Virus record (IMG/VR): IMGVR_UViG_3300028392_000001
Coordinates: 1-63,171 of that record
Direction: 5' to 3' (one strand)
Source of the DNA: a virus
Lineage: Duplodnaviria; Caudoviricetes
Length of the DNA: 63,171 bases
The first letter of the stretch is position 1; the number at the start of each line of letters is the position of its first letter. The notes under the pieces are model-generated. The model ran no database searches, had not been told where the DNA came from, and saw nothing but the letters and a program-made list of their open reading frames with translations. The position numbers and the translations under genes were made by a program. Positions 128 through 57,656 of this stretch are shown here, one piece after another.

Positions 128-1604
128 AGACTATCAGGGCGAATACCAAAGATGGAGATACGGAGGGTTTAGATTTAAGCAGTTTCCTACCAACATGGAC
201 TACTCTAAAAACTTTAATGTATTTAGGTTTTTTAGAAAGCCAACTATTGGATTTAAAGAAAACCTAGATTTTCCAACAAGGGTTACCTCAAGTTTATCAA
301 GACCTATTTCTCAAAGACTTTCTCCAAACCTTAAGTCTTTTAGACCATTTAACTATTTTGACCTTTCCGATGAGAACGGAGCTATAAAATATCTTTTTGC
401 TTCTTTTGTTTCTGGTATGGGAGACAATCTTTATGCTTTTGCTGAAAACGACATTTGTCTTTTAATGACAGACAAAAGAACGCTTAGCGACCTTAGTGGA
501 AATGAAATAGCGCTAGTTGCTACTTCTGGACCACAGTTAATTCGTCAGCAGATATGGTTAAGAGAAAGTAAAATGAAAGGCATGCCTAGTGAATGCTGGC
601 GTTCTTTTGCTTCATTTGGAGGTATTGGTTTTTGGGCTAACAGAAATGGAGTTTTTGCTTTGTCAAACAATAAAGTTTCTGACATAACAGAAGGTTATGT
701 TCAAAAGTTGTTTCCTAATATACTCGATTTTATTGATGAAAACTGTAAACTTGTTGGTGGTTTTGACACGAGATTTGAAGAGTATTATTTACTTTTTAAA
801 GTAATTCCTTTCGTAATAGAATATAATGTTTTTGCTGGAGTAACAACTGTTAATCTTCAGCAAACAAGCTCAACTGTTTTTACAATAACAGAACCTGCTG
901 GCTCACACAGTGCGTATGGTGTTGTTCTGAAAAATATGGCAGGCTCGACAGATTATTATTTTATTGTAAATGCACATAATAGTATTATATTTGTGGATTA
1001 TGAAGCAAGTACGACAATAACTACTGTTTCTACAAATACAAACTTTAAAGTTTCAGTAAACAGGGAAACTGGAGCATATACCATAACTTCATTTGTTCCG
1101 TCTTCTGTTTTTAAAGAGTATTTGTATGTTTTTTCCGCAAGAGAAGACAGCAAGGGATGGATGGGAGAATACGACTTTACTTTTGATAAAATGGCTTCTG
1201 AAGATGCTTCTACCTTTATAAGTAGAAGTCTTAAATCTTTTCAGATACATAAAGGATTTAAAATAAATGGACAAAGCATAGTATTTAAATCTGTATCTCC
1301 GTTTGCACCCGAAGTTGATTTTCAAAAAGAAGCTAAGCGTGTTGCTATAAATTCAAATAGAAAACCTCTTAATGGTCAAAGTTCCGTAGTACAACTTCTT
1401 TATTACAATGGAACTTCTTTTGTTTTGTTTTCAAGTTTAACATCTGCTCAACTTAAAGATTATGGCTATTACGAGCAATGGATTCCGGTAGACGGAAGTA
1501 GCAAAAGACTTCAGGGGTTAGTTTTTGGAGTGGTGGTTCAAGATTCTGACGAATCAGACTTTTCTTTAATTGACATAATTCTTCAATATCAAAGAATAAA
1601 ATAA
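3..1604 (+). CDS. 3' part of the same large tail/stabilisation protein
   Basis: Frame 3 is open from position 3 into the 195..1604 ORF; beta-propeller-like motifs (FWANRNGVFAL, GGFDTRFEEYYL). Confidence 0.75.
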   Translation, partial: TNTSLLYGDYFPQKNFIVRPLNWKSNTKASEQGQPFFTQYDEDYQGEYQRWRYGGFRFKQFPTNMDYSKNFNVFRFFRKPTIGFKENLDFPTRVTSSLSRPISQRLSPNLKSFRPFNYFDLSDENGAIKYLFASFVSGMGDNLYAFAENDICLLMTDKRTLSDLSGNEIALVATSGPQLIRQQIWLRESKMKGMPSECWRSFASFGGIGFWANRNGVFALSNNKVSDITEGYVQKLFPNILDFIDENCKLVGGFDTRFEEYYLLFKVIPFVIEYNVFAGVTTVNLQQTSSTVFTITEPAGSHSAYGVVLKNMAGSTDYYFIVNAHNSIIFVDYEASTTITTVSTNTNFKVSVNRETGAYTITSFVPSSVFKEYLYVFSAREDSKGWMGEYDFTFDKMASEDASTFISRSLKSFQIHKGFKINGQSIVFKSVSPFAPEVDFQKEAKRVAINSNRKPLNGQSSVVQLLYYNGTSFVLFSSLTSAQLKDYGYYEQWIPVDGSSKRLQGLVFGVVVQDSDESDFSLIDIILQYQRIK

Positions 1605-2293
1605 TGAAAAATTTAAAGTTTTTTCCTATCTGCGATGGAGGAATCATTGGAGGAATATTTGGTGGAATTACAGGTATTGCTCAGATGATTGGAGGTGCAG
1701 TTAGAAATGCTAAAGCAAACAAAATAAAGCCACCGCTAGAAGACTCCGAGCAAAGAAGTAACTATATTGACATATTAAGAAAGTCTCGTGGATACGAAAC
1801 AGGTTCTGCTGTAAGCAGAATACTTGGAAATATTGGCATAGGAGAAGCTACTGCTGATGCAGGAATTGTTTCTGCCGGAGGAGGAGATGGAGGCGCAACT
1901 CTTCAAGCTTTAATAAGAACAAACAGAAATACTGGCTCTGCTTATAATGAAGCACTTTCTGTTGCAGAACAAAACTCAAAGTTTTATCAAGGAATGGCAA
2001 CTTCAGTACTTGACCAAATTGCACAAAGAAAACTTGAGCTTCAAATGTATGATTATGCAACTGAAAAAGCAGGAGCACAAGCAATGTTTGCTGCTGGAAG
2101 TGACAATCTTGCTGGAGCCTTTTCTGGAAACTCAGGTAAAAGCTCTTCTGTATCTAATGGAAATTCAGGCGCTGCTTACATATCAAGTAAAAACACAACC
2201 AGCAATGGAGGCTTTATTGATTCCGGAGCTGGCGGTTCTCAAGTTCCTAGCAACAACTCAATAAGCGATGTAAACTATGGCGGTTACGCTTAA
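1604..2293 (+). CDS. Putative internal virion/ejection protein with Gly-rich amphipathic N-terminus; carries leader LKFFPICD
   Basis: GGIIGGIFGGITGIAQMIGG N-terminus, Ala/Gly/Gln-rich, directly after the tail gene as for podovirus ejection proteins. Confidence 0.6.
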   Translation: MKNLKFFPICDGGIIGGIFGGITGIAQMIGGAVRNAKANKIKPPLEDSEQRSNYIDILRKSRGYETGSAVSRILGNIGIGEATADAGIVSAGGGDGGATLQALIRTNRNTGSAYNEALSVAEQNSKFYQGMATSVLDQIAQRKLELQMYDYATEKAGAQAMFAAGSDNLAGAFSGNSGKSSSVSNGNSGAAYISSKNTTSNGGFIDSGAGGSQVPSNNSISDVNYGGYA

Positions 2294-2341
2294 TAACTAA
2301 TAGCAAAGCAATATTTTTAGAAATTTCCCGTTTGAAGTACA

Positions 2342-56682: not shown

Positions 56683-56713
56683 GGGAACCGAGAAAAACTC
56701 GGTTCCCATTTTT
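56683..56713 (+). terminator. Rho-independent terminator after the major capsid gene
   Basis: gggaaccgag-aaaaa-ctcggttccc followed by atttt. Confidence 0.85.
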
Positions 56714-56753
56714 GCTTTAAGTATAACAACATTTCATCTTAACAAACTATCTT

Positions 56754-57656
56754 ATGAAAACACTTTCTTTTATTGCAATTTGCGAAACAAATCCTAGCGC
56801 ACCAGGTAGTGCTCCTTTACAACCAGGTCAAGTTTCTAATCCAGATGTTAATAATCCAGCACCACCAAATCCTGTAAGAACAAAAGAAATAATCGAACCT
56901 ACAGTAAACATTGTTTCTGAAGAAAAAGAGCAGCAGGAAAGTCAGCAAATTATTCAAATGACATCTTCAGATTTTACAAAGCTTGTTTCTGCTTTGTCTG
57001 AAGGCTTTAAAGAAAGTACAAAAAACAATCCTGTTCTTGATGTTGACAGGATTATCAGAACAGTTCTAGACCAAGGTTCTGGAGCAACAAGTACTAATGC
57101 TGAAATGATTACCTATGATGAAATTGACACTGAGGATATTCTTGATGCTCCAGTGTTGTTTTTCTCTTATGCCTCTTCAACAGTAATTTTTGATGACTAC
57201 AAAAATGGAAGCGTTATAAGAAGACCTTTTTCTGAACCAATCAGGTTTAACAATATAATGAGGGTTACAACTTCCGGAAAAGTAACAAAAGCAGCAACTA
57301 CAATGTCTAGCTATGTTTGTTGGTCAAAGAAGGTTGCAGAGTGGCTTCGCAAACACACAAACTACAATGTATTGTTTTTTGAGCAAGCATCTGATGCAAA
57401 ATCTATTGACAAGAGTGGGGCAGATGCACTTCAATACGCAAGCAATCTTGTTTCATCTTATGATGAGCATTCAATAAAAAGAAATTGTATTTCTCATGGA
57501 GTTAAAATTGATACAGCAGATGTTTCAGTTTTAAGACACAGACTTATTGTTGCTATTGCCGGAAGATACGAACAAGAACAAAAGAAGCTTACAAAAGGGA
57601 AAACACTTTCGTTTAAAGCAGAAAGAGAAAACTTTGAAAGTATAGAAAAAGCATAA
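56754..57656 (+). CDS. Post-capsid virion-associated protein; carries leader LSFIAICE
   Basis: 300 aa; Pro-rich N-terminal linker after the leader. Confidence 0.6.
   Translation: MKTLSFIAICETNPSAPGSAPLQPGQVSNPDVNNPAPPNPVRTKEIIEPTVNIVSEEKEQQESQQIIQMTSSDFTKLVSALSEGFKESTKNNPVLDVDRIIRTVLDQGSGATSTNAEMITYDEIDTEDILDAPVLFFSYASSTVIFDDYKNGSVIRRPFSEPIRFNNIMRVTTSGKVTKAATTMSSYVCWSKKVAEWLRKHTNYNVLFFEQASDAKSIDKSGADALQYASNLVSSYDEHSIKRNCISHGVKIDTADVSVLRHRLIVAIAGRYEQEQKKLTKGKTLSFKAERENFESIEKA

Follow-up and report, generated by a model that had tools for sequence, protein, structure and literature searches.

Only a handful of model phages are known to place a common leader on otherwise unrelated head proteins, namely T4 and its giant relatives, with a self-encoded protease, and staphylococcal phages, which rely on the host protease Prp. 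In T4, the 10 N-terminal residues of IPIII are enough to target a protein to the capsid, after which gp21 cuts them off at L/I-X-E, and related phages differ in their cargo; in phiKZ and SPN3US, internal or ejected proteins enter the head by means of N-terminal regions that the prohead protease trims (PMC9026906). In 80alpha, Prp cuts a leader of 13-14 residues that the capsid protein and scaffold have in common, assembly depends on the scaffold leader even in an uncleavable form, and leaders of the staphylococcal type also occur on non-homologous proteins in other phages (PMC5744158). Here we describe a short N-terminal leader, or tag, shared by seven proteins of the IMG/VR virus record IMGVR_UViG_3300028392_000001, a complete viral record of 63,171 bp with direct terminal repeats, whose full length we call the window; the carriers include scaffold-like, major capsid and single-stranded DNA-binding (SSB)-like proteins.

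Two further systems invite comparison. In P1, internal or ejected proteins of the Dar system reportedly reach the head by way of N-terminal regions that a prohead protease then trims. Encapsulin cargo-loading peptides bind an HK97-fold shell and thereby load unrelated cargo; they are usually C-terminal, do not occur on the shell protein, and are not removed. For phages of Bacteroidota, no such leader was described in the literature searched, from which subscription journals were mostly absent, and in the main text of the crAss001 structure paper the terms propeptide, protease and leader, and all words beginning with cleav-, are absent.

Seven proteins of the window share an N-terminal leader

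The leader is 10-20 residues long. It opens with a basic MK or MKK, continues as a strand of alternating hydrophobic residues that includes an aromatic one, and closes with a small residue, which in the window is Cys or Ser (Table 1). It is usually followed by an acidic or flexible segment; in the AlphaFold2 (AF2) model of the post-capsid protein, here called X, residues 1-68 have pLDDT values below 50, so that the leader and the residues after it are predicted to be disordered. An initial annotation, made from the letters of the window, had listed six of these N-termini, all of which we recovered exactly as written, and had proposed that they represent one leader on non-homologous proteins. 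Statistics bear this out: the strict motif L.F.[AP][IVT]C has six matches in the whole six-frame translation, each lying no more than 20 residues from the first Met of an open reading frame (ORF) of 109-442 aa, against a mean of 0.275 and a maximum of 3 in 200 mononucleotide shuffles. A hold-out motif built from the scaffold, capsid and X leaders (L.F.[AP][VI]C) gave five six-frame matches, namely the three training sequences and the proteins at 1604 and 22203, both of them N-terminal with none elsewhere (shuffle mean, 0.22).

Because the codons beneath the motif vary among copies (TTA/CTT, GCT/GCG/TCT, ATC/GTA/ATT), the motif has been selected as protein, and a DNA-level repeat is ruled out. 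The other trivial source, mis-called starts with the true start downstream of the motif, which the initial annotation had raised against its own proposal, is excluded as well, since the leader is kept as protein, no later capsid ATG precedes the conserved N-arm, and orthologues keep the leader. An in-frame ATG does lie upstream of the capsid start, at 55245, and we prefer the start at 55323 because homologues begin MKK... at the equivalent position.

The initial annotation had set aside the near-match at 2342 as a possible by-product of an overlapping DNA repeat. This no longer stands: the orthologues of this 731-aa protein in relatives G001 and G002 carry those genomes' own leaders, which makes it a true seventh member, and its Ser in place of Cys parallels the Ser in place of Gly on the G001 scaffold. 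The 5' coding part of the 731-aa gene also contains a 16-nt inverted repeat (2368-2383/2433-2448; 94% complementary, 49 nt apart) that overlaps the leader codons and may be the DNA repeat that was meant.

Table 1. Positions and spellings of the leader in the window and in relatives G001 and G002, with leaderless late genes of the window
Genome	Feature	Position	Strand	ORF	Leader	Following residues or remarks
Window	Scaffold-like protein	53990..54034	+	53990-55306, 438 aa	MKLQNNSILRFRPVC	EE; gene lies between portal and capsid genes
Window	Major capsid protein	55323..55376	+	55323-56651, 442 aa	MKNFKKIIGISLAFVAVC	EGG, then conserved N-arm ..LYSPG
Window	Post-capsid protein X	56754..56783	+	56754-57656, 300 aa	MKTLSFIAIC	ET, then ~60 disordered residues
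Window	Gly-rich internal (ejection-like) protein	1604..1633	+	1604-2293, 229 aa	MKNLKFFPIC	DGGIIGGIFGG
Window	731-aa internal protein	2342..2392	+	2342-4537, 731 aa	MQNIQNKPIYLRFYAIS (..LRFYAIS)	DDG; Ser variant
Window	109-aa protein	22203..22235	+	22203-22532, 109 aa	MKKFLAFAAIC	AA
Window	SSB-like protein	26898..26957	-	26298-26957, 219 aa	MKQRKFSLLAMAVLAFIPTC (..LAFIPTC)	SDDD
Window	Large terminase		+	48735-51077	none
Window	200-aa conserved protein		+	51081-51683	none
Window	P22-like portal		+	51686-53926	none	PF16510, E 1e-14
Window	Giant virion-type protein		+	4558-15783, 3,741 aa	none	starts MAETKLG
G001	Scaffold				MKRLNLIFIS
G001	Capsid				MKKIIFSFIG
G001	X				MKKLKLSFIG
G001	Gly-rich protein				MKNIRFNFIG
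G001	799-aa protein				MKIKFIFIG
G001	~110-aa protein				MKKIKFAFIG
G001	SSB-like protein				MKKLKLIFIG
G001	Three small ORFs (loci L088, L089)			20607-21005, 21022-21381, 44879-45376	same pattern	no homologue in the other four genomes
G002	Scaffold				..LKIAFKE
G002	Capsid				..LPIAFQD
G002	X				..LSVSFKE
G002	Gly-rich protein				MKKIIVLNISYKF (..LNISYKF)
G002	743-aa protein				MIIGISFKS
G002	~110-aa protein				MKKTFILSVAFQA (..LSVAFQA)

Each genome spells the leader in its own way

Relatives were drawn from IMG/VR, JGI metagenomes and a protein database; four whole relatives (G001-G004) and the window make up the five genomes compared, among which orthology of the carriers was established by tblastn and phmmer clustering. 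In G001 (66,393 bp), 10 ORFs start with MK[KRN]-[IL]-x-[LFM]-x-[FY]-[IV]-[GS], a leader of 9-10 residues; a relaxed pattern has nine N-terminal matches and one internal match in 17,773 internal positions, and an unbiased comparison of N-termini by 7-mers scored with BLOSUM62 gave a clear excess of similar pairs (19, against 3.9 in shuffles). The three small tagged ORFs particular to this genome resemble variable cargo and are candidates for lineage-specific packaged proteins. A 128-aa ORF in the head-tail module of G001 (L087:19031-19417, +) starts with MKKIFTALALCVTIALHAQ, an ordinary-looking secretion signal unlike the 10-residue leaders.

The six carriers of G002 (68,824 bp) end their leaders in ..[FY]-[KQ]-x. 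Other loci show further spellings: ..Y-K-x on four proteins of L110 (..LALMYKE, ..LALLYKD, MKTITLIYKN, and MKVLVLQYKG on the Gly-rich orthologue), ..L-[GS]-S on two proteins of L109 (MKRIFIILGS and MKKLFIVLSS), and ..SFKE, ..AFGD and either ..AFKE or ..AFKN in L006 and L012. The spelling of the window, ..[AP]-[IV]-C, occurs on no other capsid among 108 homologues. The same families are thus tagged in every leader-bearing genome, and the last residues of the tag are specific to the genome. The families in question are scaffold, capsid, X, the Gly-rich protein, an internal protein of ~730-800 aa and a protein of ~110 aa, with the SSB-like protein added in two genomes; their recovery in relatives upholds the earlier view that the tag belongs to the scaffold, the capsid, and virion proteins that are internal or small. 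Homologues of the scaffold-like protein and of X are present in all five genomes, and the ~110-aa family is found only in the three that bear leaders (window, G001, G002), each copy with its own genome's leader. Because sister lineages have Gly, Ser or another ending, the terminal Cys of the window is merely a small residue and no chemical handle, and the Cys modification or lipidation that had been suggested is unlikely.

The leader is an addition of single origin

The 108 capsid homologues are of two kinds, which either start 2-6 residues before the N-arm LY[TS]P or carry an extra hydrophobic MK(K) leader. In a FastTree phylogeny of 105 of them (three fragments were dropped; rooted on P0106 and P0107, third- and second-to-last by E-value; a topology without support values), 37 of the 38 sequences labelled as leader-bearing form one crown clade, which includes one unlabelled member, P0011, and excludes the doubtful labelled sequence P0069. 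The leader therefore has a single origin on the capsid. How far homologues share it, a point raised in the initial annotation, has a divided answer: among the 78 loci read (of 81), scaffold, capsid and X all carry a leader, in other spellings, at five, but none of the three does at 73. The complete genomes G003 and G004 have the same head module, untagged.

Leaderless SSB-like homologues start just before a [DE]G-x-[FWY]-E motif. Since leaderless homologues of both the capsid and the SSB-like protein begin where the leader ends, the tag is an add-on to an already complete protein. Taken together, the tag system is wider than first described, and the comparison of relatives makes a targeting or processing tag, as read from sequence, much more likely than it was on the window alone.

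Two of the leaderless relatives (L103 and L104) are contigs binned to a Flavobacteriia metagenome-assembled genome (MAG) and a Kordia sp. MAG, which is a loose hint at the hosts of the wider phage family. The leader lineage itself probably infects Bacteroidota; upstream regions that are A-rich and lack a Shine-Dalgarno sequence, no GGAGG being visible, and the BspA-type repeats in the giant protein of the window point there only loosely.

An SSB-like protein carries the leader

The most unexpected passenger is encoded on the minus strand, downstream of a Dam gene, as are its homologues in G001 and G002. It and these two homologues have a C-terminal tip of the form ..[DE]DDLPF; in all, four members of the family have ..EDDLPF, as in the window, and a fifth, in G003, has ..GDNLPF. 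An acidic tip ending in ..PF resembles that of E. coli SSB. The AF2 model, from a 5-sequence alignment, has the strand order of an OB-fold (b1-b2-b3-a-b4-b5; core pLDDT ~80), and the leading Foldseek matches, weak as they are (E 0.008-0.07), are all OB-fold nucleic-acid binders (uS12/uS17, PrgE, RPA, Teb1). The protein matched no Pfam or PHROG family, and a 4-sequence profile found no sequence match in the PDB. These features agree with the make-up expected of an SSB (an OB-fold core, a disordered linker and an acidic tip ending in ..PF) and support the initial assignment of the ORF; we take the protein to be SSB-like rather than a lipoprotein, although the 20-residue leader formally resembles a lipoprotein signal. 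The homologue search returned four proteins only, the word filter probably being hampered by low complexity; among the five known members, the leader of the respective genome is present on two (window and G001) and absent from three (G002, G003 and P0112).

Genome organization

The linear ends of the record arose in assembly, from a genome that is circular or terminally redundant, because the two open-ended frames of a large tail gene split between them (59894-63169, running on into 3-1604) jointly match proteins of 1,664-1,692 aa in relatives. Late genes on the plus strand follow the order terminase, 200-aa protein, portal, scaffold-like protein, capsid, X, three conserved proteins of ~250 aa, and the tail protein, and continue past the record ends with the Gly-rich, 731-aa and giant proteins. 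The capsid assignment builds on the 108 homologues, 33 of which, by our count, carry a precomputed PF17236 annotation, which we take to be the SU10 major capsid protein family; the labels scaffold and ejection-like are presumptive and derive from position and composition. In the giant protein, Pfam detects only BspA-type leucine-rich repeats (LRR_5), at about residues 2408-2526, and only the C-terminal ~1,000 aa are common to the 3,460-3,529-aa proteins of G001 and G002. Neither an RNA polymerase nor any other match was found for it in Pfam (LRR_5 apart), the PDB or PHROGs, so that the resemblance to N4 goes no further than gene order.

Replication genes occupy the minus strand at 23-48 kb and encode a Dam methylase, a primase/DnaB-like helicase, an SNF2 helicase, a DUF1064 protein, a pyrophosphatase and a YfbR-like nucleotidase. 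The early genes include a single tRNA-Met (CAT) gene (41503-41577, -) and a 159-aa ORF (39509-39988, -) that starts with MKSKQELVIIIVGLFYATALAC followed by QVL and resembles a membrane or lipoprotein signal more than the virion leader. Three paralogous genes stand in tandem at 18393-20730; their products, of 243, 298 and 223 aa, begin alike (MNNLILINDVKKIG.., MNNLVKVSNATKIG.., MDRLILGQNVSRIN..), and the third has a weak match to a tail-fibre PHROG; they may encode interchangeable receptor-binding proteins.

Comparison with known leader systems

In its overall design the leader resembles the capsid-targeting sequence of T4: both measure ~10 residues, are common to unrelated internal head proteins and serve a cargo set that varies between relatives. 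Scaffold and capsid also carry the leader here, and in T4 these proteins are processed. As far as the sequence alone allows a comparison with the T4 site L/I-X-E, three of the seven window leaders run into [IV]-C-E and one into [IV]-C-D, the others being followed by A, by S, or by D after Ser. The differences are substantial. The conserved part here is a hydrophobic strand with a small end residue and not Glu, half of the G001 leaders have no following Glu or Asp, the phage looks like a podovirus and has a P22-like portal, the tagged proteins include one that is SSB-like, and a gp21-type protease (Peptidase_S77, PF03420) was absent from all five genomes at E <= 5. Peptidase_S78 (PF04586), the protease of HK97-type systems, was absent at the same threshold. 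P1 Dar, phiKZ and SPN3US likewise differ in encoding recognizable proteases, which cut after Glu.

Like 80alpha, the lineage puts a short leader containing an aromatic residue on the scaffold as well as on the capsid, and has no recognizable phage protease. Its sequence differs, however, none of the seven window leaders having an F-A junction; the carriers are many more (7-10 per genome); and its spelling shifts from one close relative to the next, in contrast to the Prp motif, which tracks a conserved L27 leader. Neither did Prp (PF04327) match the six frames of the window at E <= 1, and the two Flavobacteriia MAGs that hold leaderless relatives contain no Prp and an L27 that starts MAHKKG without extension, although these MAG results weigh little because they do not represent the host of the leader clade. 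The analogy to the L27-like leader and Prp drawn in the initial annotation thus survives as one of function but not of the enzyme and its L27 model. The likeness to encapsulins lies in a short tag on unrelated cargo and an HK97-fold shell, the difference in the tag being N-terminal and present on the shell protein itself.

A predicted capsid-targeting tag and its alternatives

We give about an even chance to a co-evolving capsid-targeting leader that is probably cleaved, is functionally like those of T4 or 80alpha, and is read by a partner. By analogy with these systems, the tag would be a recognition mark on the N-termini of proteins bound for the procapsid interior in one lineage of N4-style podophages, namely the scaffold, the capsid with its inward N-arm, X, two internal or ejection-type proteins, small cargo-like proteins and, in some genomes, the SSB-like protein. 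It would gather these proteins during prohead assembly and then probably be cut off near its last residue, and one partner per genome, whether a phage protein or a host protease, would read all copies and so force them to change spelling jointly. A single reader is proposed because it would explain the one origin, the same internal carriers, the modular addition and the concerted spelling.

Several points weigh against this reading. The strict motif was defined post hoc, and the unbiased 7-mer comparison, clear in G001, was marginal in the window (11 pairs, where shuffles averaged 4.2 and reached 8 at most, with internal segments giving 8 pairs) and null in G002 (7 pairs, against 6.8), where a strict motif also had no hold-out match. 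The five loci with leaders amount to ~3 distinct phages, and the co-occurrence counts are not independent events because the leader arose once; there is no cultured relative, and capsid and portal had no match in the phage collection. The giant virion-type protein is untagged, and a tagged replication protein misfits a purely structural role unless it is packaged. We speculate that packaging and injection of the SSB-like protein would best account for its tag, an idea prompted by the virion RNA polymerase of N4, which depends on an SSB.

The search for a protease also weighs against it. The initial annotation had recognized neither a prohead protease nor Prp, and our searches agree. Beyond the Prp, S77 and S78 results given above, no peptidase family appeared in Pfam among 67 window ORF queries (four ORFs of 42-47 aa remained unscanned), and the AF2 model of X had no Foldseek match in the PDB at E <= 0.001 and no protease-like fold. 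Families limited to the three leader-bearing complete genomes comprise the ~110-aa carrier and, in the replication module, the SSB-like, Dam and DUF1064 families and two unknown ones, A2 and A3; none is evidently a protease, in a comparison confounded by the replication modules of the leaderless G003 and G004, which are largely different. The giant protein, too, clusters only among the leader-bearing three, G003 and G004 having giant proteins of their own. Other searches were equally negative: 26 PHROG queries returned no protease, profiles of A2 and A3 against PDB sequences gave no match and chance-level matches, respectively, and an Atlas look-up of 33280-33849 gave unnamed viral clusters only. 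A complex prediction of capsid residues 19-442 with X residues 1-40 scored 0.00, giving no answer, and is used neither way.

That no search returned a protease would be expected if the tag were never cut and acted as a docking element, its strand pairing either with that of another tag or, much as encapsulin peptides do on their HK97-fold shell, with a pocket in the shell or the portal. Such mutual or shell-pocket interaction predicts concerted spelling within a genome, the alternating hydrophobic pattern suits a beta-strand, and 80alpha assembly requires the scaffold leader but not its cleavage (PMC5744158). The well-studied shared head leaders (T4, phiKZ-like phages, 80alpha) are nevertheless all cut, leaderless relatives build the same capsid untagged, and leaving a greasy N-terminus exposed would seem costly, both on the capsid subunits, which number in the hundreds, and on an SSB-like protein; we therefore regard docking as possible but doubtful. 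Equally tentative is a related picture of a self-contained, fast-evolving zip code without a classical prohead protease, in which recognition of a 10-residue strand would fall to the shell, the portal or other tags. It is likewise rather doubtful that any protein gaining the tag would be loaded, including genome-specific small proteins and an SSB co-injected with the DNA and the giant protein.

The missing phage protease would also fit if the tag copied the leader of a host protein and were trimmed by an essential host protease, as has precedent in 80alpha (PMC5744158), the spellings then reflecting different host groups. A leader clade of single lineage could coincide with a host shift, and the MAG bins of leaderless relatives (Flavobacteriia, Kordia) and the BspA-type repeats of the window's giant protein are compatible with this. 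Mimicry must nonetheless accommodate at least five spellings among capsids only 50-58% identical; the Prp negatives in the window and, with the little weight already noted, in the two MAGs speak against it, and no host protein with such a leader has been identified, though none was searched for. We consider this explanation unlikely.

We rate as improbable that the tag is an aid to expression or folding without any role in sorting, which would boost translation initiation in Shine-Dalgarno-poor Bacteroidota or recruit a chaperone. The A-rich upstream regions, the presence among carriers of the proteins expected to be most abundant, and a basic start with hydrophobic residues reminiscent of chaperone-binding peptides all suit it, and a common chaperone was raised by the authors of the 80alpha study (PMC5744158). 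However, an effect on translation would act on RNA, yet the residues are kept while the codons vary, and the idea leaves unexplained the precise genome-specific ending (F-I-G, Y-K-x, A-I-C) common to 4-10 proteins, the tags on low-copy internal proteins, and the complete absence of tags from 73 of the 78 related loci.

Sec or lipoprotein signal peptides, in which the Cys would belong to a lipobox on exported or lipidated proteins, are contradicted by the sequence and hardly credible: the MK(K) start, hydrophobic stretch and Cys before acidic residues do recall them, as does LAFIPTC followed by SDDD on the SSB-like protein, which is formally like a Bacteroidota lipoprotein signal, but three of the seven leaders have only 10-11 residues, the passengers include capsid and scaffold as well as an OB-fold protein whose tip is of SSB type, orthologous leaders end in Gly, Ser or Lys-x in place of Cys, the residue before the Cys is Ile, Val or Thr and not the small residue of a lipobox, and the true G001 signal peptide looks different.

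Implications

The capsid-targeting reading would place the logic of shared head leaders in an uncultured lineage with three unusual traits, namely no recognizable protease, 7-10 carriers per genome, and a tagged replication-type OB-fold protein. Among close relatives, the whole set of copies has shifted its spelling in concert on at least four occasions, which provides natural co-variation data for finding the partner. If the reading is true, it would show how abundant environmental podophages sort proteins into the head, mark which small uncharacterized ORFs are injected cargo and hence candidate anti-defence proteins, and yield a packaging tag that is both short and portable; should a new enzyme do the cutting, it would represent a new family of maturation proteases. 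Should the zip-code picture prove true instead, it would amount to a new protein-packaging principle in tailed phages, and a ready tag for engineered cargo delivery by phages of Bacteroidota.

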